NCBI GenBank assembly: GCA_963763775.1 | Contig: CAVXPZ010000003.1 | Location: forward strand, 384,001-448,000 | Source of the DNA: an uncultured Chloroflexia bacterium | GTDB taxonomy: Bacteria; Chloroflexota; Limnocylindria; Limnocylindrales; CSP1-4 | DNA: 64,000 nucleotides | Reading direction: 5' to 3' | Shown: positions 44,739-63,967 of the stretch, one piece after another | How the letters are laid out: the number at the start of each line of letters is the position of its first letter | Numbering within the stretch: position 1 is the stretch's first letter | Made by a program: the position numbers and the translations under genes | Notes under the pieces: generated by a model | The model's database searches: none | What the model was told of the DNA's origin: nothing | Seen by the model: only the letters and a program-made list of their open reading frames with translations

Positions 44739-45545
44739 TCAGCCGAGGATGGAGGCTCCGCGGCGGAGCGCGCGAGCTCGGTTCACCCACATGTGGAGCC
44801 GGAGCCGCCAGAAGTCGCGGACGGCCCGCAGGATCACCTGCGGCTTCGCCCCGGTCGGCGAGCCGGCCGTCCTCGGATAGTGCGGGACGCCCACTTCGGC
44901 GATCGTCCGGCCGGCGGCCTGGGACTTGATGAGGAGCTCGGCCGAGAAGAACGCGCCGTCGCTCTCGACGTGCAGACCCTCGAGGGCCGAGCGCCGGAAC
45001 AGCTTGCAGGCGCCGTCGACGTCGGTCACGCGCAGGCCGAAGAAGACGCGGTTCGCGAGTCGGTAGGCCCGTGCGTAGGCGATGCGGATGGGCGGGTCGG
45101 CCCGCTTGATCCGGAAGCCCGCGACGATGTCGGGCGCGTCCGGCGCCGCGAGCCGCGCCGTCAGGCGGCCGATGTCCACGACCTTGAACTGGCGGTCGCC
45201 GTCGGTGAATGCGACGAGCTCGAACCGCGCCGCCGCGAACCCGGACCGCAGCGCGGCCCCGTAGCCGCGGTTGACCGGGTGGTGGACGACGCGCACGACG
45301 TCCGGGTGGCGGGCGGCGAGGGCGTCAGCCAGGGCCGGCGTCCCGTCCTTCGACCCGTCGTCGACCGCGATGATCTCGAACGTCTCGGCCAGCGACGGCA
45401 GCGTGGCCAGCGCCTCCTCCACGAGCCCTTCGAGGTTCGCCTCCTCGTTGTGGGCCGGGAAGAAGTACGACAGGCGCGGCACGCGCGGCGTCGAACCGGC
45501 ACCGGCCGGGGTCTCCTCGGTCGCGGGCGTCGCCACGGTCGTCAT
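44739..45545 (-). CDS. GT2 glycosyltransferase, DPM1/Ppm1-like (polyprenol-phosphate sugar synthase candidate)
   Basis: PAHNEEANL, VDDGSKDGT, NRGYGAAL, FTDGD. Confidence 0.88.
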   Translation of the reverse strand: MTTVATPATEETPAGAGSTPRVPRLSYFFPAHNEEANLEGLVEEALATLPSLAETFEIIAVDDGSKDGTPALADALAARHPDVVRVVHHPVNRGYGAALRSGFAAARFELVAFTDGDRQFKVVDIGRLTARLAAPDAPDIVAGFRIKRADPPIRIAYARAYRLANRVFFGLRVTDVDGACKLFRRSALEGLHVESDGAFFSAELLIKSQAAGRTIAEVGVPHYPRTAGSPTGAKPQVILRAVRDFWRLRLHMWVNRARALRRGASILG

Positions 45546-47119
45546 GCGGCGGAGCGCTTCGCGATGACGTGGATCAGCAAGCCTTGGTCCTCCGGGGTCA
45601 GATACTCGATGTCGTACTTCTCGGCGAGGTCGGGGATCGCCGCGAGGGTCTCCCGCAGGAGATACACGGGGGCACGTCCCAGGTTGGCGTCGATGACGTC
45701 CTCGATCGACCCGAGGTTCTTGTCGAGTCGCGTGCGGTCGTCGACGATGACGATATCAGGCCGGACGCCCTCGACCCGCTGGGCGTACCACAGCGGTGTC
45801 GAGTAGCTCCACCAGCTGATCACCACGGCACCCGGCTGGAGCTGCGACAGGACACTGTCCAGCCAGACCGACGCGGTGCGGTCCCGGCTGCGGTCGACGG
45901 AAGCGAGCGTGGTGTCCGCCGCGGCGACCGACGGCAGGACGAGCAGGCACGCCGCGATGCCGGCCACCACGGCCGGGACGCGTGAGACCCGGGGCCGGGG
46001 ATCGCCATCGTCGAACCGCCCGCCCGGGTCGCCGCGGCCCAGCATCTCGACGACCCCCTCGACGGCGACGGCGGCGAGGATCGCGAGCCAGGTCCAGGCC
46101 ATGAGGATCGGCCCGAGGTAGTAGCGGTCGATATCGGCATTGATGTACGACGCGGCGAAGAAGCACGTGATGAGGACCGCCGTGCCGGTCAGGAGAGCGT
46201 AGGCGGGTCGGCGCGCGACGGTCGCCGCGAACCCGACCGGGATCAGTGGCGCCAGGATGCCGAACTGGGCGACCGTGACGTCGATGAGCGCATGCACCTT
46301 GCCTGGCAGGTCGCCGATCGGGTCCTGGAGGCTCCCCTGGAACTGCTGGGCGAACACGACGTACAGGAACCCGTCGAGGGTCTCGGGCCGTCCGTAGACC
46401 AGCGCCGCGCGGAATGGCCCGGCCCGGAGCGGGAGCTCGAGATACACGAGGAAGAGCGTCACGGCGAGGGCCCCCATGCACGTCAGGATGAAGCGTGGAC
46501 GGCCGAGGATGGCCCGGTCCACGGCCAGGACGTACAGACCCACCGGAAGCGCGAGGAGCAGCGTCAGCGAGTGGTTGCCCATCGCGAGCCCGAACGCCAC
46601 CGTCGCCGCCAGCAGGTAGCGATCGGCGGTCGGCTGCCCGGCGCGGACCCGGTCCTCCCAGGCGACGAGCAGGCGCAGGAGGACGGCCACCAGTGCGAGG
46701 TGCAGCGCGTGCGGGTCGGCGTGCGTGCCGATCGCCCAGACGATCGGCGTCAGCGCCAGCCCCACGCCCACGGCGACCCCGAGGGCGACGGATCGCGTCA
46801 GCGCGCGGACGAGGTCGACGGCGACCGCGGCGGCCACGCCGACGCAGATGGCCGAGAGGGCGTTCATGCGGAACGCCGGGTCGCCGAGAGGCTGGAGCAC
46901 CACCGAGGCGAGCCAGCCGAGCAACACGTACGTGGGGAAGCCCGTCGGGTGGGCGGTGCCCATCAGCGGTCCGACGGCCTGGAACTCGGCCGTGTCCCAG
47001 AACCCGACACCCGGCATGAGCGCGAGCCACGACGCGGCGAACGCCAAGACGCCGACCGCGACGGCCGGCGCCAGGTGCGAGGGGTCCGTTCGGCGACCCT
47101 GTGCTACGCTCAGATCCAC
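45542..47119 (-). CDS. DUF2723/TMEM260-like GT-C membrane glycosyltransferase
   Basis: WDTAEF, AHPTGFPTY, GNH, multiple TMs; start uncertain. Confidence 0.75.
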   Translation of the reverse strand: MDLSVAQGRRTDPSHLAPAVAVGVLAFAASWLALMPGVGFWDTAEFQAVGPLMGTAHPTGFPTYVLLGWLASVVLQPLGDPAFRMNALSAICVGVAAAVAVDLVRALTRSVALGVAVGVGLALTPIVWAIGTHADPHALHLALVAVLLRLLVAWEDRVRAGQPTADRYLLAATVAFGLAMGNHSLTLLLALPVGLYVLAVDRAILGRPRFILTCMGALAVTLFLVYLELPLRAGPFRAALVYGRPETLDGFLYVVFAQQFQGSLQDPIGDLPGKVHALIDVTVAQFGILAPLIPVGFAATVARRPAYALLTGTAVLITCFFAASYINADIDRYYLGPILMAWTWLAILAAVAVEGVVEMLGRGDPGGRFDDGDPRPRVSRVPAVVAGIAACLLVLPSVAAADTTLASVDRSRDRTASVWLDSVLSQLQPGAVVISWWSYSTPLWYAQRVEGVRPDIVIVDDRTRLDKNLGSIEDVIDANLGRAPVYLLRETLAAIPDLAEKYDIEYLTPEDQGLLIHVIAKRSAA

Positions 47120-47148: not shown

Positions 47149-50100
47149 GTGACTGGCCCCGCCTCCGATGGCACCGAGCGAGGCACAGGCGCGCCGTCGC
47201 GGTTCACCGGGACGCAGGGAGCCGTCGGCGCGATCCTGATCGTCCTCGCGCTCGGACTCGCCCTCCGCCTCATCATCGCATACCTGCTCCCCGGGTCCGG
47301 ATTCAAGGTCGACCTCGGGGCGTTCCGGTTCTGGGCGAGCGAGCTCGCGACCCACGGCCCGTGGGGCTTCTACGACCGCGACTTCCTCCACGACTACATG
47401 CCCGGGTACATGTACGTCCTGTGGCTGGTCGGGATCGTCGGCCAGGTCACCGGCGGTGTCGGCGACCTCATCAAGATCCCGCCGATCCTGGCCGACCTCG
47501 TCGTCGGCTACCTCGTCTACTCGATGGTGCTCGAGCTCGGCGGACGCAGGGCCGTCGCCCTCGGCGGCGCCCTGCTCGCGGTCCTCAACCCGATCAGCTG
47601 GTTCGACAGCGTCGCCTGGGGCCAGGTCGACTCCTTCGGGGTCGTGTTCCTGCTCCTCGGCCTGCGCGAGCTCTGGCGCGACCGGCCGGAACGCGCGGCG
47701 ATCTACACGGTCATCGCCGCCATGATCAAGCCCCAGCTCGGGATCCTCGTGCCACTCGTCGCCGTGGTCGTGATCCGGCGGGCCCTGTGGCCGGCCGGCG
47801 GTGACGGCGACCCGGAGCGCACCGGGCACCCGCGCCGGATCGTCACGACGGCCATCGCCGGCGTGGCGACCGCCGTCGTGATGTCGATCCCGTTCGGGCT
47901 GACGCCGGCCGGCTTCGTCCGCCAGCTGCTCTCGACCGGCGGCACGTACCCGTTCACCACGGTGAACGCGTACAACCCGTGGGCGCTCCTCCCCTCCGAC
48001 ATCGGCAACAGCCCCGCCGCCACGGGCGGCTGGATCTGCGACGCGGCGTCGACCTTCGTCCACGACGACTGCGGCTGGGGGACCGCGTTCATCGGGCCGT
48101 TCCCCGCGATCGTCGTCGGGACGGCGCTGCTGATCGGCGTCTTTGCGCTCGTCCTCGCCGTGGCTGCCCGGCGACCGGACCGACTCACGCTCCTGGTGGC
48201 CCTCGCCATCCTCGCGCTCGCCTTCTTCATCGTGCCCACGCGCGTCCACGAGCGGTACGGGTACCCGTTCTTCGCGCTCGCGGTGATCCTCGCCGCGGTC
48301 TCCCTGCGCTGGCTGACCGCGTACCTCGTGCTGACCGTCGCCACGTTCGCGAACATGTACGTCGTCCTCACGACGATCTACTCGGACAACCCGTCGGTGG
48401 AGGACTGGCTGGGGATCGGGCCGGCGATCCGGTCGCCGGCGGGCGTCACCGTGATCGTGCTCCTGCACCTCGCCGGGTTCATCTGGGTGGTGCTCCAGCT
48501 GCGGTCGTCGGCACGGGCACGGCTCGCCGGCCGAACTCGCGGCCGCGGCCGAACCCGAGGACCACGCGACGGACGCCGAGACGGATCGGTCGGACGTGCC
48601 GGCGGCGGCCATCGGCCCGGGCATCGCGGCCATCCCGGCCACCCGGGCCGTCACGTCCTCGTCGGTGGTCACGCCACCGCCGCGACCCGACGTCGAGATG
48701 CCGCGCTGGTCGGGCCGGCCGTCCGTCGCCGAGGTGGGGGTCGTGGCCTGGCTCCGTGATCGCTGGGGGACGCCACCGATCCGCCCGGATCGCAGTGCCA
48801 CCCTCGTGTCCGAGGGCGGTGGACGCCTCGACCGCCTCGACCTGTGGTTCCTCGTGATCCTCGTCCTCGCGTCGATGAGCCTGCGGATGTTCCGGCTCGC
48901 CGAGCCGTACCAGATGCATTTCGACGAGGTCTATCACGCCCGTACCGCCACGGAGTTCCTCCAGGACTGGCGGTACGGCGAGTCCCACGACATCTACGAG
49001 TGGACGCATCCGCATCTCGCGAAGTACGCGATGGCCGCCGGGCTCGTGCTCTGGGGCGAGGACGACGTCGCCGCGACCAGCGAGCTGGGCGTCCCCGTGA
49101 AGGCCGCCGTGGTCGAGCCGCGACGGGACGACCCGACGGCGCCAGGCGGCCGGGCCGGCGAGCGCCTGCACGTCGCGACCGGCACCGAGATCCGGACGTA
49201 CGACCTCCGCACGCGGGCGCTCATCGCGACGATCCCGGCGCCCGGCGTCTCGGCCCTCGCCCTCGATCCCGCGGGGACCGAGATGATCGTCGGGTTCGAC
49301 GACGGCCGTGTCGCGACCCTTGACCTCGGCTCGATCGATGCCGACGCGGCGGCGGCCGGCGTGGCGCCCCTCGACCTCGGCAAGGTCGGCGGTGCGGTCA
49401 CGCAGCTGTTCGTCCCCGACGACGGGTCGACGATCATCGTCGGGCAGCACGACCGGCTCGACGTCATCGACGATTCGACCGGCGACCCCCTCGGCGGCCT
49501 CGACGTCCCCGGGCTCGCGGACATCGGCGATGGCGGGAGCGGCGACGCCCTCCAGGCGACCCTCGCGGACGTCCCGGACCCATCCGCCGCCGCGTCCGAG
49601 CTCGCGAGCCTGCTCGACGGCGAGGCGGCGACCTATGAAGCCCTCCTGCGCGGGACCGGCGAGACGGCCCTGCTCGGCAGCCCAGGGAGCGGCGACACCC
49701 GCAAGGCCGTGGACACGGCGATCGCCGACGGCAAGCTGCCCGGCATCGAGGTGACGCAAGTCTCCCGCGTGGCGGTCGCGACCGCCGACGGCGTCGAGTT
49801 CATCGACCCGGCCACGGCCCAGGTCTCCTCGACCATCCCGCTCGTGGGTGGCGCCCACGGCCTGGGACGCGTCTCCGGCATCGAGGACGACCAGCTCTAC
49901 GTGACGTCCGGCACGCCGGACGCGCCGACGTACGACGTGGTCGCGATCTCGGGGGATGCCGCGGCCAGCGGTCCGGCCAAGTCGGGGGGAAGCCACCCGC
50001 TGCCCGGACTCGGGAGCAAGGTCGTGTACGACAAGGCCAGCCAGATGGTCCACATCCTCGGGCTCGCGCCGGACGCGACGACGACCGGCGCGGGCGCGGC

Positions 50101-52468
50101 GGACGGGCCGTGGACCGTCTATGTGGTGGAGCCGCATGCGAAGGCGGTCTTCGCGGACGCCCGGCTCGGCGACGGGTTCGTGCCGGCGGCGTGGGCCGCG
50201 GACATCAACGACCAGTACCCGTCGGCTGACCGGCAGGACCTCCTCGTGTTCGACGGCAGCGGTTCGATGGCCTCGATCGAGCTCGGGTCGCACGCGTTCG
50301 CGTGGCGTCTGCCGGGCGTCATCGCGGGCACGCTGACCCTCGTCTGCCTGTACCTGCTCGCGCGCATCCTGTTCCGCCGCCGATTGATCGCCGGCCTCGT
50401 CGGGCTCTTCGTCCTCGTCGACGGGATGTTCTTCGTCCAGGCGCGGATCGGGATGAACGACGTCTATGTCGGGCTGTTCATCATCGCCGCGTACACGCTG
50501 TTCGCCGCGGTCTGGACCGGGTGGTGGCGCGGCCGTGCGGCGTTCTGGATCTCGATGCCGATCATCGGCCTGTTACTCGGGCTCGCGCTGGCGAGCAAGT
50601 GGGTGGCGCTGTACGCGATCTTCGCGCTCGGCCTGCTCATCCTCCTTCGGAGCGCGCTCGGCCGGGTGATCTCGATCCTCGGGCTCATCGCGATCACGAG
50701 CGTGCTCGGGTACATGGCGATCAGCGTGCCGGAAGGGCAGGGCTTCGGGAACATGACGTTCCTGCTCATCATGGTCGCGCTCACGCTGCTGGCGGTGGTC
50801 GTGGCCGTGTGGCACCCGATCGCCTGGACCGACGACGAGATGCGGTTCGCCGTCATGGCCCCCACCGCGCTCGGAGCGCTCGTGTTCTTCGGGGCGCTCG
50901 CGACCGGCCGCCTCGACTCGCAGATCGTCATCCGCTCGATCGCGGTGACGCCGTTGGTGGTCGCCATCCTGCTCGCCCTCGGGTCGTTGCTGGTGTGGCT
51001 CGCCTTCGCGATCGGGGGGCGGATCGGGTTCGGGCCGCTCGCCGCGGCGCCCGGGCCGGACGACCCGGCGCGGTTCCTCGAGCCGCCGGCGCCCGCGCCG
51101 GAGGGCTGGCTGCGCCCCGGCTACCTGCTCGGCTTGCCGGTGGTCTGGGCCGTCATCTGCCTGCTGGCCCTGCCGGTCGCCGTCTACGTGGTCTCGTACA
51201 TCCCCTGGGCGCTCATCGAGAACCACCGACTCTTCGGCGACATCGCGTTCCTCGGCATCCACATCCCGGCCTGGCCGGCCGGCCATACCGGGCAGACGCT
51301 CGTCGAGCTGACCCAGCAGATGTACGGCTACCACAACGGCCTGACGGCCCCGCACCCGGCCTCGTCGCCGTGGTGGGCGTGGCCGCTCGACCTCAAGCCG
51401 GTGTGGTTCTACCAGGAAGGCCTCGCGGGCGGGACGGCGGCCGCGATCTACGACGCGGGCAACCTCGTCATCTGGTGGCTCGGCGTCGCGGGGATGGTCT
51501 TCGTCAGCGTCATGGCCTTCCGCCGGCGCAGCCCGGCCCTCGCGCTGATCGCGATCGGGTTCGCCGCGCAGTGGATCCCCTGGGCCCGCATCGATCGGGC
51601 GGCGTTCCAGTACCACTACTACACCGCCCTGCCGTTCGTGGCGCTCGCCCTGGCGTACTTCATCGCGGAGATCTGGCACGGGGCGTCACGATTCACATGG
51701 CAGTTCGCCCGGGTCGCCGGCGCCGTGGCCCTGGTGCTGCCGGCGGCGCTCTGGCTGTTCTCGCGGCCGCTCTGCGCGATCGTCGGCGTCGAATCGGTGA
51801 ACCCCGGGTCGGCGGCCTGCCCCGCGGTCATCCCCGAGTTCGTCCTGACGACGCGGACCGCGGCGCTGGCCGTGGTCGCCGGCATCGGGCTGTTCTTCGT
51901 GCTGCGCACGGTGCTGGCGATCTCCGACGCGGACCGCGACGGCGCCAGCAGCGAGCGCGGCTGGTACCGGTCGCTCGCGATCACCGGCCTCGTCGTCGGC
52001 GGGGCACTGGTGATCGCGTCGCTCATGCCCGACACGCCGATCCTCACGCTCACCCGGATCCCGGTCGAGCCGATCGTCCTCCTGGCGGCGCTGCCGCTCG
52101 CCTACCTCGCGCTCGGGGTCTTCGCCGCACGCGACCCGCGACGGTTCGTCGTCGGGTACGTCGCCGCGGCCGTGGCGTGGGGCGTCGTGCTCTACCCGAA
52201 CATCGCGGCGCTGCCGCTGCCGGCGGTGATCGTGAACGCGTACCAGGGGGTCATCCCGACCTACCTGTACGCCTTCCAGTTCCCGGTCAGCACGACCGAT
52301 CGCACGGTCGCGACACCGATCCTGACACCGGAGTTCGCCCTGCTGACGGTGGCGCTGACCGTGACCTGTCTCGTGATCGCCTACTGCGCCTGGTTCTGGA
52401 GGTTGTCGCTGGCGGGCTCGTCCGACGTCGACGACGCCGAAGCCTTCGCCCGCAGCAGCGGCGCCTGA
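47149..52468 (+). CDS. Very large phospholipid-carrier-dependent glycosyltransferase (GT-C plus PMT-like fusion); apparent +1 frameshift near 48529
   Basis: N-module DYMPGY, WGQVDS, KPQ, HERY; C-module FDEVYH, HPHLAK, ASKW, HPASSPWWAWPL, FQYHYY; removing one G at GCCGGCCGAA joins the two ORFs. Confidence 0.75.
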
Positions 52469-53619
52469 GGGATCTCGGCGCGGAACCCGTCGGGGAGCTG
52501 GCCGGCCGCCGCGAGCCGGCGGATCACGAAGCCGTAGTACTCCTCGACCTTCGCGGTCACGCGCGGCCAGCTGAAGTCCTCGGCGCGACGGCGACCGGCC
52601 TCGCGCATCGACGCCTGGAGATCCGGCTCGTCGAGGAGGCGCGCGATCGCCACGGCGAGGTCCTTCGGCTCGCGCGGCGGGACCAGGAGCCCCTCGCGAT
52701 CCCGCCGGACGACCCCCTTGTAGCCGTGGATGTCCGAGCAGACGATGGGCGCGCCGGCGGCCATGGCCTCGAGGAGGACGATCCCGAACGACTCGCCGCC
52801 GGTCGCCGGGGAGACGAAGACCGTCGCCGTGCGGTAGAGCTGGGCCTTCTCGGTATCGCTGACGCGGCCGAGGAACTCGACGCCCTGGAGTCCGCGCGTG
52901 GCCACGTAGCGGCGCGCCTCGCGCTCCTGTGGGCCACCGCCGACGATCAGGAGCCGCGTGCCGTACCCGGTCTTGCGCAGGATGCGCTGGGCCTTGAGCA
53001 GGTCGAGGAGCCCCTTGCGCGGCTCGTGGCGCCCTACGAACAGCAGGTTCGGCGTGCCGTCCTGCCATCGGGCGATCGGCACGGCGTTGGCAAATCGCGC
53101 GATGTCGACCCCATTGGGGATCACCTTGTAGTCGCCCGGGAAGAACCGGTCGATGAAGTGGCGCGCCGCGGCGCTGACCGCGATCCGGCCGTGGAGCCGT
53201 CCCGCGTAGCCGCGCATGACGCGGCTGCCCAGCTCGTACGAGGGCGAGAAGCCGGCGTACGCGTGGAACGTCGCCACGTTGACGCTCGTGGATTCGCGGA
53301 GCAGGAACAGCGACAGGAACGGCACGAACGGTTCGTGGAAGTGGAGGAGGTCGAAGCGCTCGCGCTCCAGCATCGCCTTCACCTGCCCGATGTAGCGCGG
53401 CGAGAACGTCAGGGTCCCGACCGACCCGTTCGTCGGCATCGAGAACCCGACGCCGATGCGCAGGATGTCGCCTTCCGACGAGCGCTGCGGCCCGTGGCTC
53501 GCGGTGATGATCCGCACGTCGTGCCCGGCCAGGCGCAGGTTCTCGTACAGGAATCGCACGTGCTGCGCGACGCCGCCCGCCTCCGGGTAGATGTACGGGC
53601 AGACGAGGCCGATCTTCAT
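52381..53619 (-). CDS. GT4 glycosyltransferase, phosphatidylinositol alpha-mannosyltransferase PimA-like
   Basis: MKIGLVCPY..GGV..HV, HFHEP, EPRKG, GGESFGIVLLEAMAAG. Confidence 0.85.
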   Translation of the reverse strand: MKIGLVCPYIYPEAGGVAQHVRFLYENLRLAGHDVRIITASHGPQRSSEGDILRIGVGFSMPTNGSVGTLTFSPRYIGQVKAMLERERFDLLHFHEPFVPFLSLFLLRESTSVNVATFHAYAGFSPSYELGSRVMRGYAGRLHGRIAVSAAARHFIDRFFPGDYKVIPNGVDIARFANAVPIARWQDGTPNLLFVGRHEPRKGLLDLLKAQRILRKTGYGTRLLIVGGGPQEREARRYVATRGLQGVEFLGRVSDTEKAQLYRTATVFVSPATGGESFGIVLLEAMAAGAPIVCSDIHGYKGVVRRDREGLLVPPREPKDLAVAIARLLDEPDLQASMREAGRRRAEDFSWPRVTAKVEEYYGFVIRRLAAAGQLPDGFRAEIPQAPLLRAKASASSTSDEPASDNLQNQAQ

Positions 53620-54440
53620 CGGCCGTCGGCCTCGTATCGCGGGGGCCGCTGGCGCCCGCCCGGATACCCGTGGTCCCGCCCGGTGCCGTCGCGGCGCAGC
53701 CGGCCGCCGACCTCGTCCTTCGCGTCACGGCCGCGCTTGCGCAGCTGCTGCCCGAAGACGCCGAGCTGCCCTGTCGCCCCGTGGAACGAGCCGTGGTGCT
53801 TCGTCTCCCGCGCGAGGATGGCCGCGCGCAGGTCCGCCGCCGTGTGCCCGGGAAACGACGTCCAGCCGGTCCCGACGGCCTCGAGCGCGTGCGCGTCGCT
53901 GTCGCCGAGGTGCGCGAGCCCGTGCGCCGTCGCGAAGCGGACGACGCGCTGGTGCCACGGCCGCCCGAGGGCCGTCGGGTTGAAGGTCTCGAGGCCGTCC
54001 GGGTGGACTCGCTCGTCCGGGTCGTCCAGGAGACCCCGGAGGACGCGCCCCTGGGCGCAGAGCGGATACGGCACGAGCGGGTGTGCAGGGACCGCCAGGC
54101 CGCCCGCATCGTGGACGGCGGCGATCGAGTCCCGGAGCGAGCGGTACGGACGGATCCGCTCCTCGACGAAGAGCGCCAGGAGGTGCCCGCCGCGCGTGGT
54201 GACCTCCTCGCCGACGACGACCTCGATCGGGAGTCCGCGATCGCGCGCCATGGCGCGCCCCGCGACCGCCGCGTCGATCCGCTCGTGGTCGGTGATCGCG
54301 ATGACGTCGAGCGTGCGGGCGGCCGCGACGTGCTCGAGGATCGCCTCGACGCTCGCGGTGCCATCGGACGCGACGGTGTGGATGTGGAGGTCCGCCCGGC
54401 CGGGCCGATCGGGCCGATCGGGTCGATCGCGACCGGTCAT
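53616..54440 (-). CDS. PHP domain phosphoesterase
   Basis: DLHIHTVASDG, AITDH, GEEV..GH, AHP, GDSDAH. Confidence 0.9.
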   Translation of the reverse strand: MTGRDRPDRPDRPGRADLHIHTVASDGTASVEAILEHVAAARTLDVIAITDHERIDAAVAGRAMARDRGLPIEVVVGEEVTTRGGHLLALFVEERIRPYRSLRDSIAAVHDAGGLAVPAHPLVPYPLCAQGRVLRGLLDDPDERVHPDGLETFNPTALGRPWHQRVVRFATAHGLAHLGDSDAHALEAVGTGWTSFPGHTAADLRAAILARETKHHGSFHGATGQLGVFGQQLRKRGRDAKDEVGGRLRRDGTGRDHGYPGGRQRPPRYEADGR

Positions 54441-55376
54441 GCCGCGGCCTCCTCGAGGTCGGGCCAGATCGGGAAGAAGACCGCCCACCATTGCTCCGGA
54501 GCGGTCTCGACGATCCGCTCGAAGGCGTGGGCAAGGTCGGTCATGGTGGCCGTGACGCGATCGCGGCGCGTCCCGTCGAGCGGGACCGTGATCCGCTCGA
54601 GCCGACCGCTGTACCGTCCGACCCCCATGCGGCGCACGCCGACGACGTAGGGCCTCGCCCCGCTCTCGACGGCCAGCATGGCCGGGCCGAGCGGCAGCTT
54701 GGCCGGCGCCCCGAACAGCGGCATCAGCACGCCGCCACCGGTCAGGTCGCGGTCCCCGACCAGCCCGACGGCGGTCCCGTCGCGGAGCGCGGTCAGGAGC
54801 TCGCGACGCGCCTCGCGGAGCCCGACGATGCGGACACCGGCGGCACCGCGCGTCCGGACGAAGAACGCCTGGAGGGCCGGGTCGTCGATCGTCTCCATCG
54901 GCGCGACCGCGCCGCCCGACGCGTTCGGCGAGGAACAGCGAGGGGATCTCCAGCGACCCGAAGTGGAGCCCGACGAAGATCACGGGCGGCCCGGCGCCGA
55001 ACGCCTCGTCCACGACCTCGGGCGTCTCGACGGCCATGAGGCGGTCCACCTCGCCCGGGCGGATGGACGGGGTCCTGGCCACCTCGAGGTAGTAGCGGGC
55101 GTTGTGCCGGAACGCGGACCGGACGAGCCGCTCCAGCGCGCGTGGGTCGGCGGCCGCGGCCTTGACGCGTGCTCCGCCGCGCCCATCCGCCGCCAGGGCC
55201 GTGACGACGCGGCGCAGGTTGCGGCGCGCCTGGGACGCGCGGTCGGGCGCGGCGCGATACCAGAGGTCGCCGGCCAGGTCCGCCAGCCGGACCAGCGGAC
55301 CCTCCGGGAGCCGGCACGCGACCCAGGAGGCGCCGATGAGCAACCGGCCCCGCGCACGCCGGAGCAGCCGGTTCAC
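54437..55376 (-). CDS. Lysophospholipid/PatA-like acyltransferase; apparent +1 frameshift near 54915
   Basis: YARY-like NARYYLE, LHFGSLE, LVGDRDL, FGAPAKLPLGPA, PEQW; extra G in GTCGGGCGG. Confidence 0.82.
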
Positions 55377-56473
55377 CGGCCCGCCTCGGACGCCGGTGCG
55401 CTCCCGACGGCCGTGGCGTCCGCGGGGGGCGCGAAGCCGCGGCCCGGGCCGGGATCGGGCTGACCGGCCTGCATGACGAGAGCGCGCCGTTCAAGGTCCG
55501 CGGCCTCGGCGGCCGTGGCCGGCCAGATCGGCTTGAAGCTGTACCACTGATGCGGTGCGGCGGCCACGGTCTCGGCCAGCCAGTCGGCGAGGGCCTGGGT
55601 GACCCGCCAGAGCTCGGCCGGGTCCTCCGAGACGATGTCGATCGGCCCGCGCCACGTGACCAGCATCGTGTCGTCGGGCTGCCGGCGGATCGAGATCGGG
55701 AGGATGCGCGAGCCGGTCTTGGCGGCGAGCGTCGCGGGACCGGCGGGCAGGGCCGTCCATGCGCCGAAGAGCCGGACCGGGATCCCGTCGCTGCGGTAGC
55801 CCCAGTCCACGAGAAGCCCGAGGAGCTCCTTGCGCCGGAGCACGCCGAAGATCCCGCGGAGGTTGCGCCAGCCGATGAGCTTGACCCCCCAGCCCTCGCG
55901 CTGGCGTCGGAGCAGGTCGAACAGCTCCGGGAAGGACGAGTCGTCCGCCACGACGCTGAGCGGCAGGCCGTGCCGGGCGATCCCGGCCGCGACCGCCTCG
56001 TTGCTGCCCATGTGCCCGACGACCAGGATCATCCCGCCGCCGCGCGGCGCCTCGTGCCAGAGGCGTCGGACCTCCCCGATATCGAGCGTCGGCGTCAGGC
56101 CGGCCACCTCGTCGAGCGGACGCGACGGCAGCCGCATGAGCTCCACGAGGTAGCGGCCGTACTCGAGATAGGCGCGAAGCGCCATCCGACGGACGCGCGG
56201 GTCGTCGGGCGACAGGCCGAGGACGTGGCCGAAGTTGCGGTTCGACCAGCGCCGTTTCGTCGGCCAGACGAGGTACGAGAGTTGCGACAGCCGGCCGACG
56301 ATCCCGCGAGCGAGGCCCTGCGGCAGGACCCCGAACACCCACGCCGTCACCCGGTAGGCGAGGACCGCCAGGCGCTCGACGACGCGGGGACTGCTGCCCC
56401 CGCGTCGATGCGGGGCCTCGAGGCGGCGTTCGCCCGGGGCGACCCCGTCGGTCCGCTGACGGCCGTCGGTCAC
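55373..56473 (-). CDS. Lysophospholipid/PatA-like acyltransferase
   Basis: [37 protein letters not shown]; GTGA overlap with ino1; start uncertain. Confidence 0.85.
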
Positions 56474-57717
56474 TTCGCCGCGGCGGTCGCGACCTGCGCC
56501 TTGTTGCCGGCGAGCTTGCGCAGCTTGCGCTTGACGGGCGCCTCGGTGCCCACGAGCGTCTCGTTGTCCTCGCCGCGGATGAACGCCTCCACCCGGTTGA
56601 AGGCGATGTCGTCGTGGATCTGCTGGGGCGGGCTCTTCATGAAGTAGCTCGAGGGGGCGACGAGCGTGCCCTTGAGCCCGCGGTCGAGGCCGAGCTTCAT
56701 GCAGCGGATGGCGTCGGTGATGACGCCGGCGCTGTTCGGGCTGTCCCAGACCTCGAGCTTGAGCTCCGCGTTGAGCGGCACGTCGCCGTAGGTCGTGCCC
56801 TCCATCCGGATGTAGCACCACTTGCGGTCGAGCAGCCACGGCACGTGGTCGCTGGGGCCGACGTGGATGTCGTCCTCGTCGAGCTCGTAGTCGAGCATCG
56901 AGGTGACGGCGTTGGTCTTGGAGATCTTCTTGGACTCGAGGCGCTCGCGCTCGAGCATGTTGAGGAAGTCCGTGTTGCCGCCGAAGTTCAGCTGGTAGGT
57001 GCGGTCGAGGCGGACGCCGCGGTCCATGAACAGGCGGGTGAGGACGCGGTGGGTGATCGTGGCGCCGACCTGGCTCTTGATGTCGTCGCCGATGACCGGG
57101 AGGCCGGCCTCCGCGAAGCGGCGCTGCCAGTAGGGCTCACGGCCGATGAAGACCGGGATCGCGTTGACGAACCCGACGCCGGCCTTGAGGGCCTGCTCGG
57201 CGTACCACTTCGTCGCCTCCTCGCTGCCGACCGGCAGGTAGGAGACCATGACGTCGACCTCGCGCTCCTTGAGGATGCCGACGATGTCGGCGGTCTCGCC
57301 CGGCGCCTTCTCGATGATCTGGCTGAGGTACTTGCCCAGGCCGTCGTGGACCATGCCGCGCTCGACGGTCACGCCGATCTTGGAGACCTGCTGGAAGACG
57401 TACGTGTTGTTCGGCTTCGTGTAGATCGCCTCGGACAGGTCCTTGCCGACCTTGTTCTTGTCGATGTCGAACGCCGCGACGAAATCGATGTCGCGGATGT
57501 GGTAGCCGCCCAGGTTGACGTGCATCAGCCCGGGGACGAAGTCGTCGTCGTTCGCGTTCTCGTAGTAGTAGCGGCCCTGGACGAGGCTGCTCGCGCAGTT
57601 GCCGACGCCGACGATCGCGACGCGGATCTTGCCGTCGCCGCGGCGCCCGGCGCCTGCCCACGTGTTGCCCGGCGTCGCGCCGTTCTTCCCGTTGCCGTTG
57701 CTTCCGTTCTTGGCCAC
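56470..57717 (-). CDS. ino1: myo-inositol-1-phosphate synthase
   Basis: [46 protein letters not shown]. Confidence 0.96.
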
Positions 57718-57736: not shown

Positions 57737-58384
57737 TTACTTGGTCTGGGTGGTCGAGGTGGACTGCTGCTGATCTTGGCGGCGGACGAACAGGATCCGC
57801 TGGATGACGGTGATGACGGCCCCAACGAGGATGACGCCGAGCGCGAACTCGATGGCCGCGATGCCGATGCTCGTCCCGGTCAGGACGATCCCGAGCGAGA
57901 TGATGACGAGGCGGACCTCACGGGGCATGACCCCGATCGCCGCCAGTCCCATCCCCGAGGAGTAGCCGAGGGCGTCGGACTTCGCCCGGGCGTAGCTGAC
58001 CATGATCGATGCGCCCATGGCGGCCGCGGCCACGAGGACGGGCAGGTCCGCCGCGCCGGCGGCCTGCATCCCGGCGATGACGCCGAGGAAGACGACGATC
58101 TCGCCCGCCTTGTCGAAGAACGAGTCCATGAAGGCGCCGAGCTTGCTGGCCTGGCCGGTCGCGCGCGCCAGCGTGCCGTCGAACATGTCGAAGACGCCGC
58201 CGACGAAGACGACGATGCCGCCGACGACCCAGGCCTGCAGCCCGACCAGGATGGACCCGACGACGGTGATCGCGAACCCGATGAGGGTCAGCCCGTTCGG
58301 GGTGAGCCCGATGCGGCCCATCCCGAGCGCGATCGGCTCGAAGATCCGCTTGACGCGGTCGCGGGAGTCGTTGGAGATCGTCAT
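57737..58384 (-). CDS. CDP-alcohol phosphatidyltransferase (phosphatidylinositol-phosphate synthase-like)
   Basis: [24 protein letters not shown] signature, SYARAK, TVIQR; adjacent to ino1. Confidence 0.9.
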
Positions 58385-58393
58385 CGCGCCGGG

Positions 58394-58726
58394 CTAGCTC
58401 GCGAAACCGAGGATCGCGCGCTCGCGCTCCGCGACTTCGCCGAACGCCTCGGAGCGGAGGCGGCAGACCGTCTCGCGGCCGACCCGGCGGCTCTCGATGA
58501 GCCCGGCGGCGCGCAGGCGCTTGAGGTGGTGGCTGACGAGCGGCTGCGAGAGGCCGACGTGGGCGATGAGGTCGTTGACGGACGCCTCGCCCTCGGCGAG
58601 CCGCCGCACGATGCGCAGCCGGTTCACGTCGGCCAGCGCCTTGTGGAAGGCGCGCAGGTCCCGCAGGTCGTCGGGCTGGATGACGATCGACGCGATGGTC
58701 GAGCGGATCCGGGCGGGCGTGGGCAC
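58394..58726 (-). CDS. ArsR/SmtB family transcriptional regulator
   Basis: KALADVNRLRI, LSQPLVSHHLKRLRAAGLI..RRVG. Confidence 0.9.
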   Translation of the reverse strand: MPTPARIRSTIASIVIQPDDLRDLRAFHKALADVNRLRIVRRLAEGEASVNDLIAHVGLSQPLVSHHLKRLRAAGLIESRRVGRETVCRLRSEAFGEVAERERAILGFAS

Positions 58727-58770
58727 GGGCGGGGCGATCTCCTGGGCCGTCTGGGGACGGTGGCCGTCGT

Positions 58771-58802
58771 ATCAACGACGGTTGATATCAACGGATGTTG
58801 AT
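58771..58802. promoter_or_regulatory. Tandem ArsR-type operator
   Basis: Two abutting palindromes ATCAAC-N4-GTTGAT (58771-58786 and 58787-58802) between the divergent arsR and MFS genes. Confidence 0.75.
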
Positions 58803-58847
58803 GCTACGACCCCGACGATGTCAAGCCCGCGCCGTACACTCCCGCGC

Positions 58848-60531
58848 ATGGATCGCCGGTCGAGGTCGGTGCTGCTCGCCGTCTTCGGGACCGGCGTGTT
58901 CCTCGCCGGGCTGGAGCTCATGATCACCGCCGTCGCGCTGCCGTCGATCCTCGACGACCTCGCGGACCCGAGTCGCGGCTCGGCCTGGGTCGAGCTGCGC
59001 AAGGCCAGCTGGATCATCAACGGCTACCTGCTGGTCTACATCCTCACGATGCCGCTCGCGGGGCGGTTCACCGATCTGTGGGGCGCCCGCCGACCGTTCC
59101 TCGCGGCCCTCGCGATCTTCACGATCGGCTCCGCGCTCGCCGGGCTCGCCCAGACGATGGACCAGCTCATCGCGGCTCGGCTGGTGCAGGCGGTCGGGGG
59201 CGGCGTGCTGGTCCCCGTCGGGACGGCCGCGGCCGCCCACCTGTACCCGGGCGCGGCGCGGCCCCGTGCGCTCGGCATCATCGCCGCGCTGACGTTCCTG
59301 GGGATGGCCGCTGGCCCGTTCCTCGGCGCGGCGATCCTGGCCTCGTTCCACCCGGCCGACGCGCTGGCCGGCGCCGGGCTCGGGTCGCCATGGACGTCGT
59401 TCTTCGCCCCGGCGTGGCGCTGGATCTTCTTCATCAACGTGCCGATCGGCCTCCTCGCCCTGCTCTTCGGGTGGGCGGCGTCGAGCGGCTGGGATACCCC
59501 GCGGCGACCGGGTCGCGCGGACCTGCTCGGGGCGGCCTGGTTCGGCCTGGCGCTCGTGAGCGGGCTCGTCGGTCTCACCCTGATCGGAACGACCGAGATC
59601 GCCGGCGGCCTCGCGGACCCGGCCGTCGTCACCGCGGTCCTCCTGGTCGCCGGCATCGCATTCACGCTCCTGGCGATCCGGCACGGACTGCGCCGCGAGG
59701 ACCCGTTCCTCGATCCGCGGCTCTTCACGATCCGTCCGTTCGCGGCGGCGTCGCTCGTGTCGCTGCTGACCGGGTACGCGTTCGCGACGGCGATCATCGG
59801 CGGGGCGGTGTTCGTCGACCGCGTGCTGTACGGCGGCCCGGACGACCAGCGGCTCGCCCTGGGCGCCCTCGCCGGGGCGACCGCGGTCGGGGCCCTGGTG
59901 TCGGGCTTCGCGCTCCGGATCATGTCGCCCGCGGGTGGCGACGCTCCTGGGCCTCGCGCTCAGCATCGCCGGACTGGTCGCGATGGCCGCGTGGACGTCG
60001 GAGACGGACATCGGGATCGTGGCGCTCTCGCTCGCGACGTTCGGGCTCGGGTTCGGCCTCACCGTCACCCCTCGTTCGACCGCGGCCGTGGAGGCCGCGG
60101 GCCGCCGGTCGTTCGGGGCGGCGGCGTCGGTGGTGACCGTCGCGCGGATGATCGGCATGGCGATCGGCCTGGCCATCCTGACGGCGTACGGCTCCACGAC
60201 CATCGACCGGCTCGCGACGCAGGTCTACGCCACCCCGGATGCGTACCTCCAGTTCATCCCCGCGACGCTCCAGGACCGGCCGCTCCGTGATCCGCTCGTG
60301 GTCGACGCCCTCGAGGAGTGGGCGTCGCGCGAGGCGGCGCGGATCATGGTCGGCCTCTTCGTCGTGGCCGCGGCGGTCACCGCGCTCGCCATCCCGCCGT
60401 CGCTCGTCCTCGGCAGTCGCCCGCGTATGCTGGGCACCGAACGCGCCGCAGCCGATGCGGCCGTCGCGGGAGGGCTCGAACCCGATGGCCGCGAACCCGC
60501 AGAAGCCGGCGGCCCCAGCGCCGCCCTCTGA
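58848..60531 (+). CDS. MFS transporter (DHA2-like); apparent +1 frameshift near 59930
   Basis: WIINGYLL, GRFTDLWGAR, RLVQAVGGG, WRWIFFINVPIG; extra C in TCGCCCGCGG. Confidence 0.85.
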
Positions 60532-61600
60532 CGCCGAGGGCGGCGCCGCGCACGAGCGCGCGCTCCTGCTCGGCCGTGCCGGCGAGCCGGTCAGCTTCAG
60601 CCGGCGGAACGCGGTCTCGAACGAGGGGCCAGGGCTCATCCGCGTCGCCGCGGTCCTCGGCGACGCGGTCCACGAACTGACCGGCGCCGAGGCGCTCGAC
60701 CGTCTCCCGGGGTTCCTCCAGACGACCGGGGCGAGCGTCTGGGTCGACCTCGCCGGCCCGTCGCGCGAGCAGGTGGAGGCGCTCGGGGCCACGCTCGGGC
60801 TGCACCCGCTCATCGTCGAGGACGTCCTCGAGGGGAACCAGCGCGCGAAGATCGAGACGACCGACGACGTGGTCCACATCGTGCTGTTCCACCTCGACTA
60901 CCAGGCGGCGCTCGTGGCGTCGGAGACGGACATCGTGCTCGGACCCGGGTTCCTGCTGACGACGCACGACGCGAGCTGGGACCCGCGAGCCTCGAACCAC
61001 CTGCGCGGCGGCGTCGAGACCATCCTCAAGCACGGCCCGGACCACATGCTGTGGGCGCTCGCCGACGACATCGTCGACGGCTACTTCCCCTTCGCGGACC
61101 AACTGGGCTACGCGATCGACGAGGTCCAGGACGAGGTCGTCCAGAAGGCCGACAAGGCGGCGCTGGAGCGCCTGTTCTTCCTCAAGCGACAGCTCATCGA
61201 CGTGCGGCGCGCGGTGAGCCCCGTCCGCGAGGTCTTCAACCAGATCACGAACCGGGACATGCCGCTCGTCGACGAGGACGAGCTCCTGTACTTCCGCGAC
61301 ATCTACGACCACGTCATCCGGTTGACCGACGAGCTCGACAACTACCGCGAGCTGGCGTCCTCGACGCTCGACGTGTACCTCACCACGATCAACAACAACC
61401 TCTCGATCATCATGAAGCGGCTGACCGGGGTGACGGTCATCCTCGCGGGGATCGGTGCGGTCGCCGGGATCTTCGGCATGAGCGAGGCCGGACTCGCCCT
61501 CGGCGGCGGGGAGGCCGGCGGGTTCTGGGCGGTCACCGCGTTCGTCGTCGGGATCGCGGCGCTCGCCGCGATCGTCCTGCGCAAGATCGACTGGATCTAG
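60485..61600 (+). CDS. corA: CorA family divalent cation transporter
   Basis: WVDL, LHPLIVED, QRAKIE, YFRDIYDH, MKRLT, GIFGMS; start uncertain. Confidence 0.88.
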   Translation: MAANPQKPAAPAPPSDAEGGAAHERALLLGRAGEPVSFSRRNAVSNEGPGLIRVAAVLGDAVHELTGAEALDRLPGFLQTTGASVWVDLAGPSREQVEALGATLGLHPLIVEDVLEGNQRAKIETTDDVVHIVLFHLDYQAALVASETDIVLGPGFLLTTHDASWDPRASNHLRGGVETILKHGPDHMLWALADDIVDGYFPFADQLGYAIDEVQDEVVQKADKAALERLFFLKRQLIDVRRAVSPVREVFNQITNRDMPLVDEDELLYFRDIYDHVIRLTDELDNYRELASSTLDVYLTTINNNLSIIMKRLTGVTVILAGIGAVAGIFGMSEAGLALGGGEAGGFWAVTAFVVGIAALAAIVLRKIDWI

Positions 61601-62292
61601 CCGCAGACGACCGGGTGCGGTTTCGGGTGCGCCGACCCGTGGTCGGACGTCTCCTGGGAGAGCGGCTTGGCGAGGACCTGCAGCTTTCCGACGGTCCCGT
61701 GCGGGCCTTCCGATGTCTGGAGCCAGAGCTCGTCCTCGGTCGCGGCGAGCGCGTCGTCGAGGGTGCGCTGGTGGCGGCGGACCTCGGTGATCTCGTAGAG
61801 GAAGCGCTGGTCGTCGTTGGTCCAGACCTCGACCACCATGCCGAGCAGGCTCTTGCCGTTCTTGATCTTCGACCGTTCCAGGAGTGGCAGGAACATGCCG
61901 TCACGGGCATGGGCGTACAGGTACGTCGCCCGGCCCTCGCCCGGCTGTCCGAGGGCGCCGATCCACATCGCGACGTCGCACAGCGGGTAGTCCGTCGGCG
62001 CGCCCGGCTTGACGACCGGGAGGTCGATGTCGAGCGCGGCGATCCGGACGCGCGTCGCGACCCGATCCGGCGGAGGACTCGGACTGGCGGTCGGTCCGGA
62101 CGACCCGAGCGGCGGCAGCGTCATGAGCGGGATCGGCGTCTCGGGCGCGTCGGTCACCGTGGGGTCGGCCGTCGACAGGCCGCCGGCGTCGGCCGTGACC
62201 GGCGTCCCGTACGACAGCAGGCCGCCTGCCAGGAGGGTGACGCCGAGGGCCGTGAGGATGGCGGGCAGGAGACGCGATCGGACGCCGGACAT
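61597..62292 (-). CDS. Sortase-like membrane-anchored protein
   Basis: N-terminal TM, RVRIAALDIDLPVV, YLYAHA, LWLQTS in place of TLxTC. Confidence 0.65.
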   Translation of the reverse strand: MSGVRSRLLPAILTALGVTLLAGGLLSYGTPVTADAGGLSTADPTVTDAPETPIPLMTLPPLGSSGPTASPSPPPDRVATRVRIAALDIDLPVVKPGAPTDYPLCDVAMWIGALGQPGEGRATYLYAHARDGMFLPLLERSKIKNGKSLLGMVVEVWTNDDQRFLYEITEVRRHQRTLDDALAATEDELWLQTSEGPHGTVGKLQVLAKPLSQETSDHGSAHPKPHPVVCG

Positions 62293-62372
62293 CGGAGCGG
62301 CATCGTAGCAGCGGCTCCACCGAGGCGCCCCGAGCCGCTCGTACTGGTGTCCGGGCTGGTACCCTCGGGCCC

Positions 62373-63077
62373 ATGTGGGCACGTCTGTCGATCGTCGCCG
62401 GCCTCGTGGCCGGGGTGGCCGTCGCGGGACTCGTGCTCGGCGCGATCCTGCTCCTCAGCCCGACACCCACGCCCCCGCCGGTCGTGACGCCCCCGCCGGT
62501 CGCCGTGGCGACATCGTCGATCGCCCCGAGTCCGACGGCTGCCCCGTCGGCCACCCCGGCCGTGACGCCGTCGCCCGCCTCGCCGTCGGCGACCGCCGAG
62601 GCTCCCGATGCCTCGCCCAGCCCCTCGCTCGCCACCCTGCTCCACATCGGCGAGCCCGCGCCGTCGCTCGTCCTGCCCAAGGTCGGCGGCGGCACGATCG
62701 ACCTCGCGGCCCTCAAGGGCAAGCCGGTCTGGCTCGACTTCATGAGCACGGCCTCCCCGGCCGCCCAGGAGGAGTTCCCGCTCATGGCCGGGTTCGCCAC
62801 CCGCTACGCGGACGCCGGGCTCGCCGTCGTCGCGGTCGACGTCGGAGAGGACGAGGCCACGGCCGCGGCCTTCGCCCAGGCGCTCGGGACGACGTTCCCC
62901 ATCGGTCTCGACGCGGACGGGGCGGCCTCGACCGCGTGGAGCGCCCACGACCTGCCGGTCCATTACTGGATCGATGCCGACGGCATCGTCCGCGACGGCG
63001 CCACGGGCGGGATCGGGTCGGACATCATGGCCCGCGGCGTGGGCGCGATCCTGCCCGGAGTCGTCGTCCAGCCGTGA
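62373..63077 (+). CDS. TlpA/ResA-like thioredoxin-fold protein lacking CxxC
   Basis: N-terminal TM, Pro/Thr linker, LKGKPVWLDF-MSTASPAAQEEFP, LPVHYWIDADG. Confidence 0.78.
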   Translation: MWARLSIVAGLVAGVAVAGLVLGAILLLSPTPTPPPVVTPPPVAVATSSIAPSPTAAPSATPAVTPSPASPSATAEAPDASPSPSLATLLHIGEPAPSLVLPKVGGGTIDLAALKGKPVWLDFMSTASPAAQEEFPLMAGFATRYADAGLAVVAVDVGEDEATAAAFAQALGTTFPIGLDADGAASTAWSAHDLPVHYWIDADGIVRDGATGGIGSDIMARGVGAILPGVVVQP

Positions 63078-63967
63078 CCGACGCGGTCTCGACGCGCGCC
63101 GAGATCGCCGCGGCACTCGACGGACTCATCGGCACCGCGGGGCTCCTGCTCGTGGTCGCCGACTTCGACGGGACGCTCGCCGCGGGCTCCCGCGATCCCG
63201 CGGCCGCGCGCATCGAGCCCACGGCGCAGCGGGCGCTCCGTCGGCTTGCCGGGGTCACGGCGGCCCGGCCCGATCGCGTCCACGTCGCGATCCTGACCGG
63301 CCGGACGGTGCCGGATGTGGCGGCGCGTGCCCGGGTCGGCGGCATCGAGTACCTGGGCGACCACGGCCTGCAGGCCGCCACCCTGCCGCGTGGCGCGCGG
63401 GCGGGATCGATCGTGGCGGTCATCGAGCCCGGGTTCGACGGGCATGCGATCGCCGCGGAGGCCCTCGCGTCAGGTGTCGCCGACGAGCTGGGCCGGCCGT
63501 CGTGGCTGTTCGTCGAGCGCAAGGGGCCGTCCGTCGCGTTCCATGTGCGGCAGGCCGATGATGTGCCGGCCGCGCGGGCGGCGGTGCTCAAGGCGGTCGC
63601 CGCGGTCGAGTCGCGGGCGGACCTCGGTGCCCATGGTCTCGCGCCCTACCGCGGCCGGTCCGTGGTCGACCTCCGGCCGGAGGCCGCCGGCGGCAAGGCC
63701 GAGGCCGTCGATCGGCTGCTCGCTCGGCTCGCGCCGCGCGCCGCGATCGTGCTCGGCGACGACCTCTCGGACGGCGACGCGTTCGATGCCGTGCATGCGG
63801 GGGTGGGCGACGGACGGCTCGGCGTCGGGATCGCCGTGGCGGTCCACGGCCGGCTCGCGGCGCCGCCCGACGTCCTGGAACGAGCCGACCTGGTCGTGGC
63901 GGGGTCGCGCGAGGTGGGCCGGCTGCTGGGGGGACTGGCGCGACGACTGGCGAGCGAGCCGGTCTAG
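63074..63967 (+). CDS. otsB: Trehalose-6-phosphate phosphatase (HAD)
   Basis: DFDGTLA, ILTGR, GDHG, ERKGPSVAFH, GKAEA, LGDDLSDGDAF. Confidence 0.85.
   Translation: MTDAVSTRAEIAAALDGLIGTAGLLLVVADFDGTLAAGSRDPAAARIEPTAQRALRRLAGVTAARPDRVHVAILTGRTVPDVAARARVGGIEYLGDHGLQAATLPRGARAGSIVAVIEPGFDGHAIAAEALASGVADELGRPSWLFVERKGPSVAFHVRQADDVPAARAAVLKAVAAVESRADLGAHGLAPYRGRSVVDLRPEAAGGKAEAVDRLLARLAPRAAIVLGDDLSDGDAFDAVHAGVGDGRLGVGIAVAVHGRLAAPPDVLERADLVVAGSREVGRLLGGLARRLASEPV

Follow-up and report, generated by a model that had tools for sequence, protein, structure and literature searches.

Bacteria and archaea make phosphatidylinositol (PI) through a phosphorylated intermediate, which in bacteria is phosphatidylinositol phosphate (PIP). 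The enzyme that removes the phosphate from PIP has been assigned in one group only, Bacteroides, where it belongs to the PgpA family: BT_1525 of Bacteroides thetaiotaomicron was assigned genetically in 2022, and PIP accumulates in the deletion strain, according to PMC9246714, which PMC10191378 summarizes. For mycobacteria, PMC6506517 (2019) and PMC7502851 (2020) call the PIP phosphatase unidentified, and the abbreviation list and references of PMC9385802 name an archaetidylinositol phosphatase. Here, we analyze a window of 64,000 nucleotides from an uncultured Chloroflexota bacterium (contig CAVXPZ010000003.1 of assembly GCA_963763775.1, positions 384,001 to 448,000), in which a gene for a metallo-phosphoesterase of the PHP superfamily (53616-54440, minus strand) lies in an operon for PI and phosphatidylinositol mannosides (PIMs). 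A sequence-only reading of the window had proposed this gene for the PIP step, on the grounds that the dephosphorylating enzyme is not firmly assigned; judging from the papers cited above, that holds for mycobacteria but not for Bacteroides. We put the chances as even that the gene encodes a PIP 3-phosphatase, a cytoplasmic metal-dependent phosphomonoesterase of the PI pathway; this plausible candidate is non-homologous to the PgpA-type enzyme of Bacteroides.

The G+C content surrounding the gene is 67-76%, so long spurious frames are common in the window. The frame at 53616-54440 is a genuine gene and not one arisen by chance in DNA with 72% G+C. It runs for 274 codons and a stop without an internal stop codon, and the 274-residue protein is identified as a PHP/PHP_C metallo-phosphoesterase by Pfam (PHP_C, PF13263, 48.1 bits against a cut-off of 21.3; PHP, PF02811, 30.0 bits against 26.4), by an AlphaFold2 model and by conserved metal-ligand positions. 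Homologues number 4655 at E ≤ 1e-5 in a protein database (8000 candidates scored) and 5412 at E ≤ 1e-3 in a representative library; a Protein Atlas search returned only Chloroflexota PHP_C clusters, all named ‘hypothetical protein’. At its start (ATG, 54440-54438) the gene shares the four bases ATGA with the TGA of the upstream PatA-like gene, and at its stop (TGA, 53618-53616) it shares another ATGA with the ATG of the downstream glycosyltransferase (GT4) gene. The intact PHP gene overlapping patA-like and pimA-like genes that the sequence-only reading had described is thus present, at exactly the coordinates given there. A longer frame at 53616-55376 is an artefact: its upstream portion comes from the second PatA-like gene, whose N-terminal half has been shifted into the PHP frame by a one-base frameshift.

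The operon reads, on the minus strand from 58384 to 52381, PIP synthase, INO1, PatA-like, PatA-like, PHP and PimA-like GT4, with one 17-base gap after the PIP synthase followed by four 4-base overlaps of start and stop codons. Both the GT4 of PimA type and an acyltransferase of PatA type are specifically related to characterized enzymes of PIM synthesis. As had been claimed from the letters alone, the conversion of PIP to PI is the only step from glucose-6-phosphate to acylated PI-mannoside without a gene among the other five. In the proposed scheme, INO1 would make inositol-3-phosphate, which the PIP synthase would join with CDP-diacylglycerol to PIP at the inner face of the membrane; the PHP enzyme would then remove the remaining ring phosphate to give PI, which the PimA-like transferase would glycosylate and the PatA-like enzymes would acylate. 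The PHP enzyme may associate with the membrane through its basic C-terminal extension. We infer both its substrate and the order of these steps. The PIP-synthase-like gene is the only CDP-alcohol phosphatidyltransferase (PF01066) found in the genome, which is 87% complete, and no PgsA- or Pss-type gene was detected in it. If this single enzyme holds, inositol lipids would be the sole CDP-alcohol-derived phospholipids of the host, and the PIP step would not be dispensable.

The place of the PHP gene is kept across the phylum. In 80 loci from close relatives (68-86% identity), the full six-gene order is present wherever at least 4.3 kb of upstream sequence is available (57 of 57), and a GT4 gene lies within 450 bp downstream of PHP in 79; the remaining contig ends just past the PHP gene. 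A phylum sample of 301 Chloroflexota genomes yielded 29 further PHP loci, all with PatA-PHP-GT4, and these include families f18, f34 and f42 (our labels), in which the PHP protein is 43-48% identical and the PIP synthase follows GT4. Two operon layouts exist, one with the synthase first and about 4 kb away, which is the class of the window, and one found elsewhere with the synthase last and about 1.9 kb away; either way, PHP is located between PatA and GT4. An operon-type PHP gene also lies between PatA and GT4 in families f23 and f27, while in f12 a member of the sister clade stands beside the cluster on the opposite strand. Within the window, PHP shares an operon with PIP synthase and INO1, and among the matches listed it lies within 6 kb of a PIP synthase in 54 of 64 genomes, these 54 coming from 14 families. 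This set is a biased subset, comprising the genomes present among the best 150 matches of both the PHP and the PIP-synthase searches; in nine of the ten exceptions among those matches the two genes are on different contigs.

The trees of PHP and GT4 are broadly congruent, which suggests that PHP has broadly been inherited vertically together with GT4. Genus g4 of the window's own family (L095-L097, L099, L100) stands out, with PHP proteins 40-43% identical next to PimA-like proteins 74-77% identical. Replacement of PHP in situ was considered for this genus and rejected, given that its PHP forms a long branch in the tree, with f2 and all other members of the family as its sister group; on this topology, fast divergence is more likely than replacement.

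The catalytic core of the protein spans approximately residues 14-217; after it come a long helix (222-244) and a basic tail that is less ordered. In an alignment of 70 diverse homologues, H21 is invariant and H19, D26, H52, E79, H86, H120, D182 and H184 are each at least 90% conserved; these nine residues, which we take to be the classical ligands of the trinuclear PHP metal center, provide the complete His/Asp/Glu set of the superfamily (HxH, D, H, E, H, H, DxH). The AlphaFold2 model (mean predicted local distance difference test score 92.1, predicted template-modelling score 0.89) shows a barrel, and a Foldseek search with it gave 43 matches in the PDB at E ≤ 0.001, those listed being PHP-domain proteins, which supports the PHP barrel fold. 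The best of these matches are BVU_3505 (3e38), the PHP domain of RNase AM (7ug9), TM0559 (2anu), PsfC (7rty) and 2yb1. In sequence-profile comparisons, RNase AM and its relatives come closest among solved proteins (E 7.6e-26 to 2.5e-17), but the match is split in two around their inserted domain, an insertion that the window protein does not have. No PgpA domain (PF04608) is present in the protein, in which the Pfam matches are PHP and PHP_C only, and by eye no hydrophobic segment or signal peptide was seen. The core is acidic (median net charge -5) and the C-terminal extension basic (median net charge +5, and at least +3 in 52 of 69 tails). Positive charge is the only feature conserved in the tail: an amphipathic C-terminal helix serving as membrane anchor was tried and rejected, since its hydrophobic moment is no better than that of shuffled tails (median z 0.41).

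The protein reaches no curated NCBIfam cut-off, with 66.1 bits against 80 for the CehA/McbA metallohydrolases (NF038032, residues 15-166 only), 52.8 against 375 for RNase AM/TrpH (NF047791) and 39 against 400 for the 3',5'-nucleoside bisphosphate phosphatases (NF041577), the last two over residues 16-83 only. Position in an operon shows involvement in a pathway and not a substrate, and the nearest named relatives, RNase AM and the bisphosphate phosphatase, act on nucleotides or RNA ends. An unlikely alternative is that the enzyme performs another hydrolysis linked to the pathway, for example on a nucleotide that is a product or donor (GDP, GDP-mannose), or as a phosphodiesterase that splits off an inositol-lipid head group. 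A Nudix gene follows pimA in the mycobacterial operon and offers a comparison for such a role. Against it stand the scores just given, far below the cut-offs and confined to a short stretch, and the fact that the PIP step would then be left without a candidate: PgpA (PF04608), PAP2 and PAP2_3 were not found in the genome, although the controls were positive (the PF04608 match was recovered in B. thetaiotaomicron), and at 87% completeness these absences are not proven.

A role for PHP as PIP phosphatase draws further on proteins from another phylum. A profile search for longer proteins, in which clean proteins came from several sources, found at least 33 protein clusters of 624-680 amino acids (P0345-P0377) with an N-terminal PimA-like domain and a C-terminal PHP domain, two of which are named Thermoleophilia and Solirubrobacteraceae by NCBI. 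Their PHP domains match the family profile at E 1e-39 to 5e-48, with the ligand positions invariant and an invariant Glu where the window protein has His86. Among solved proteins, PimA is closest to the glycosyltransferase part (E 3e-40 and 2.5e-19), and the domain order, GT4-PHP, runs opposite to that of the genes in Chloroflexota. Of 80 metagenome loci, 40 have room for INO1 within 3 kb upstream of the fusion gene and 31 of these have it there; for a PIP synthase within 5 kb, the figure is 23 of 27. As judged from these domains and neighbors, the fusions are a second link of the PHP family with PimA and PIP synthesis, and our reading, a plausible one, has two independent genomic associations behind it. 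Other PHP-GT4 and PatA-PHP proteins that look like fusions (55-88% identity) were rejected, since their wrong-frame stretches mark them as frameshift chimeras from error-prone assemblies.

The same arrangement raises the question of the order of steps. In both operon layouts PHP always comes after PatA and immediately before the PimA-like gene, away from the PIP synthase, and in the sister clade it is physically fused to a PimA-like domain. The PimA-like transferase, and perhaps PatA, might therefore act on PIP itself and PHP dephosphorylate the glycosylated or acylated intermediate, much as in the synthase/phosphatase pairs of other sugar-phosphate pathways. We consider this order quite improbable. 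Mycobacterial PimA is known for its mechanism on PI, which is also the substrate named in the titles of solved structures, and 30 of the 33 fusions are without the signature of a glycosyltransferase (the E-x7-E glutamates and conserved Lys/Gly positions, none of which varies among the Chloroflexota PimA-like proteins), so no glycosylated product would come from them. Sequence alone cannot separate this order from direct action on PIP. A complex prediction for the PimA-like and PHP proteins scored 0.00 and gives no verdict either way.

Several observations weigh against PHP as the PIP phosphatase, and the first concern its distribution. Co-occurrence with ino1/pgsA, which had been suggested as a check, was carried out but is uninformative: within the phylum sample, PHP homologues at E ≤ 1e-10 are present in 270 of 301 genomes and INO1 in 275, and a PIP-synthase-like gene was matched in 287, a count in which E-values do not separate PIP synthases from PgsA-like paralogues (the f9 and f33 matches are flanked by FtsK and Lgt). 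All three are too common for presence or absence within the phylum to discriminate. Up to five of the genomes counted in these tallies, and in that of the paralogue below, carry an unpublished flag (G038, G145, G173, G227, G272); they are absent from every locus, alignment, tree and linkage count. Moreover, PHP does not accompany the PIP-synthase pathway everywhere. Family f30 has a ParB-GT4-PIP synthase cluster without PHP, and all seven of its genomes combine GT4-PIP synthase and INO1, and neither PHP clade gave a match in them at our thresholds; f19 has INO1-GT4-PIP synthase, and f20, f7 and f16 have INO1-PatA(-PatA)-GT4-PIP synthase, likewise without PHP. No other phosphatase is visible in the annotated f30 and f19 loci.

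The converse is also seen. In four families (f13, f9, f22 and f44), operon-type PHP homologues with 42-47% identity have unrelated surroundings, among which no partner gene recurs. Two f13 genomes that are 99-100% complete (G011, G024) have a PHP match at about 1e-40 and no INO1 match. Close homologues fused to a STAS domain exist as well and point to other uses of the fold: P0251 (392 amino acids) and P0233 (510 amino acids) are clean operon-clade PHP proteins, 42-43% identical, with the STAS domain at the C-terminus. The superfamily is functionally broad, including nucleases, a nucleotide phosphatase and carbamate hydrolases, and the basic tail would fit a nucleic acid, RNA or DNA, as well as an anionic membrane. 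In the open-access papers and preprints searched, none was found linking a PHP-domain protein to PIP. The stand-alone homologues and the tail would also suit a housekeeping nucleic-acid or nucleotide phosphoesterase that merely travels with lipid genes. We hold this to be very unlikely, given the translational coupling at both ends of the gene, a position kept through operon rearrangement in 14 families and an independent fusion to a PimA-like domain in another phylum, which together make hitch-hiking hard to invoke.

Other phosphatases also weigh against PHP as the PIP phosphatase. The fused PHP domains are closer to a second PHP/PHP_C paralogue of the window's genome than to the operon PHP (107-129 against 75-80 bits, in all four tested) and group with that paralogue in the tree (support 0.996). 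Of the 21 fusion loci with room for it, 19 have a PAP2_3 gene immediately before the synthase, and no such gene was found in the Chloroflexota loci examined; the fusion clusters read PAP2_3, PIP synthase, INO1 and fusion, sometimes with a gene between (L139:5226-6002, L166:3136-3930), and PAP2_3 could be the PIP phosphatase there. The paralogue lies outside the window (G000:C3:348567-349409; L138:7568-8410, minus strand), encodes 281 amino acids with 35% identity to the operon PHP, and overlaps by 4 bases the downstream gene for a flippase-like membrane protein (LPG_synthase_TM). Among the matches listed, paralogue-type PHP genes adjoin a PIP synthase in the f12 genomes G010, G059 and G107 and lie 5-12 kb from one in 12 f20 genomes; in most other genomes they are unlinked to the synthase. 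Two loci of the IMPase family are present on another contig of the genome.

It is thus conceivable, if unlikely, that the PIP phosphatase is the second paralogue, an IMPase-family protein or an unrecognized enzyme, with the operon PHP being redundant or having a regulatory or salvage function on inositol lipids. The grouping of the fusion domain, the coupling of the paralogue to a membrane protein, its linkage to the synthase in f12 and f20, the IMPase loci and the PI clusters without any PHP all speak for this. On the other side, the paralogue and the operon are 35 kb apart, the paralogue standing among cell-wall genes behind MreB and a MurA-like gene of the EPSP_synthase family, and families with operon-type PHP in their PI clusters mostly have no paralogue-type match (f17, one of six genomes; f26, none of four; f15, none of five; f14, none of two). 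In the host, either of the two paralogues may be the one that does this job. For the operon PHP as PIP phosphatase, the candidacy put forward by the sequence-only reading hence stands in part: an intact gene, a complete metal site, translational coupling in a PI/PIM-type operon, a conserved place and the sister-clade fusion favor it, and PI clusters without PHP, the PAP2_3 rival in the fusion loci and the paralogue question count against it.

The five partner genes were identified as follows, all on the minus strand. The PIP-synthase-like CDP-alcohol phosphatidyltransferase (57737-58384, 215 amino acids) matches Pfam CDP-OH_P_transf with 53.5 bits, and scores 122.6 bits with NCBIfam PIPSynth (cut-off 170) and 124.1 bits with archaetidylinositol phosphate synthase (cut-off 180), below the cut-off in both cases. 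INO1, a myo-inositol-1-phosphate (inositol-3-phosphate) synthase (56470-57717), matches Pfam Inos-1-P_synth with 121.4 bits and TIGR03450 with 535.7 bits, below the cut-off of 638; its probable start is the GTG at 57717, 17 bases past the stop of the PIP synthase, and no other in-frame start codon occurs in the stretch inspected. The first PatA-like acyltransferase (55373-56473, Pfam Lip_A_acyltrans 105.2 bits) has a GTG start that overlaps the INO1 stop by 4 bases. It scores 121.1 bits with the NCBIfam PIM acyltransferase, below the cut-off of 209, and its solved relatives are structures of PatA (5f2t/7ojt/5oce, E 4e-19), the only solved matches at E ≤ 1e-5.

The second PatA-like acyltransferase (54437-55376) occupies two frames, which cover profile positions 18-145 and 151-287 of Lip_A_acyltrans. 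A GGG run at 54915-54917 with one G too many splits the gene, which is intact in relatives, four of which have LAARVGGAVAPMET in a single frame. In the same genome, one IMPase gene has an internal stop and another is in two pieces, which makes an assembly error and a true pseudogene equally likely. The last operon gene, the PimA-like GT4 glycosyltransferase (52381-53619, 412 amino acids), matches Glycos_transf_1 with 134.5 and Glyco_transf_4 with 79.1 bits. Its best solved relatives are mycobacterial PimA (4n9w/2gej, E 4e-61, residues 1-364), with the next GT4 at 1e-20, and its E-x7-E positions E276 and E284 are invariant in 57 sequences; as judged from these matches it is specifically PimA-like.

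Two membrane glycosyltransferases of protein-O-mannosyltransferase type (PMT, PMT_4TMC, PMT_2/TMEM260-like) flank the operon at 48596-52465 (plus strand) and 45545-47119 (minus strand), one of them convergent with the operon end. Mycobacterial GT-C enzymes extend PI-mannosides into larger lipoglycans, and by analogy the flanking enzymes might do the same here. Upstream of the operon are other transcription units. An MFS transporter (Pfam MFS_1; 58497-60290, plus strand) appears to continue in an overlapping frame (59935-60531, plus strand), which suggests another assembly frameshift. It is followed by a CorA transporter (60239-61597, plus strand), a sortase-domain gene (61600-62382, minus strand) and a trehalose-phosphatase-family (HAD) gene (62375-63964, plus strand), and a redoxin gene lies at 62373-63074. 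The host is a Limnocylindria-like member of the Chloroflexota and no actinobacterium; a search of sequencing runs found no run holding the strain, with shares of 0.15 or less.

If the operon PHP is the PIP phosphatase, the step from PIP to PI would have a second solution, in an enzyme of the PHP family unrelated to the first, and the PI pathway would be completed for the Chloroflexota, in which INO1 and the PIP-synthase-like gene are each present in approximately 90% of the 301 genomes. The full PI/PIM pathway could then be rebuilt in a heterologous host from one operon, and genes for PIM-type glycolipids, usually deemed actinobacterial, would be common in abundant soil Chloroflexota; among the open-access papers and preprints searched, none on PIM genes in Chloroflexota was found. 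No PHP_C match is present in the Corynebacterium glutamicum control genome, so the candidate would not settle the mycobacterial question, and the PHP family probably does not fill the PIP-phosphatase gap in the mycobacterial and corynebacterial group.

A wider proposal, possible but doubtful in our view, is that compact PHP + PHP_C proteins are widespread and unrecognized lipid head-group phosphatases at the cytoplasmic face of the membrane. Both clades would derive from an ancestral PIP phosphatase and complete PI synthesis in Chloroflexota and Thermoleophilia, and a dead PimA domain would have been recruited in Thermoleophilia as an anchor that binds PI or PIP. PHP_C matches occur in all four archaeal control genomes, three of which have INO1, and under this wider proposal the family could also be a lead for the archaetidylinositol-phosphate phosphatase.

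Compared with described systems, the window protein is structurally closest to TM0559 (2anu) and BVU_3505 (3e38), which are likewise compact PHP + PHP_C proteins without an inserted domain (Foldseek E 3.9e-12 and 1.8e-10, TM-score up to 0.74 on the target). However, they are only 17-19% identical to it and are proteins of unknown function, and hence give no information on the substrate. RNase AM (7ug9, 9etk) and 2yb1 share the PHP fold and the N-terminal HxH...D...DH motifs, but have an inserted domain, and the context of lipid genes belongs to the window protein only. The protein 2yb1, from Chromobacterium violaceum, was solved with Mn, AMP and phosphate, and its NCBIfam family is the 3',5'-nucleoside bisphosphate phosphatase. 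Such an enzyme removes one ring phosphate beside a second phosphate, which would formally resemble the reaction on PIP.

The Thermoleophilia-type fusions belong to the same PHP family and also stand beside INO1 and a PIP synthase, but they form a sister clade, are fused to a mostly degenerate PimA-like domain, have Glu for His86 and lie in loci with PAP2_3 and without PatA. BT_1525 of Bacteroides, the PIP-DAG phosphatase named PIPPh, carries out the reaction that we propose for the window PHP, from PIP to PI after the PIP synthase, and its gene likewise lies in an inositol-lipid cluster, adjoining MIPS and the PIP synthase (PMC9246714). It differs in its unrelated fold and family, the window protein being PHP + PHP_C only, and in the nature of the evidence, which is genetic for BT_1525, whereas the window PHP is a candidate predicted from its sequence and gene neighborhood. 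The PI-PIM locus of mycobacteria and corynebacteria has counterparts in the window operon for the PIP synthase (PgsA1), PatA and PimA; to these the window operon adds INO1, a second PatA-like gene and PHP.

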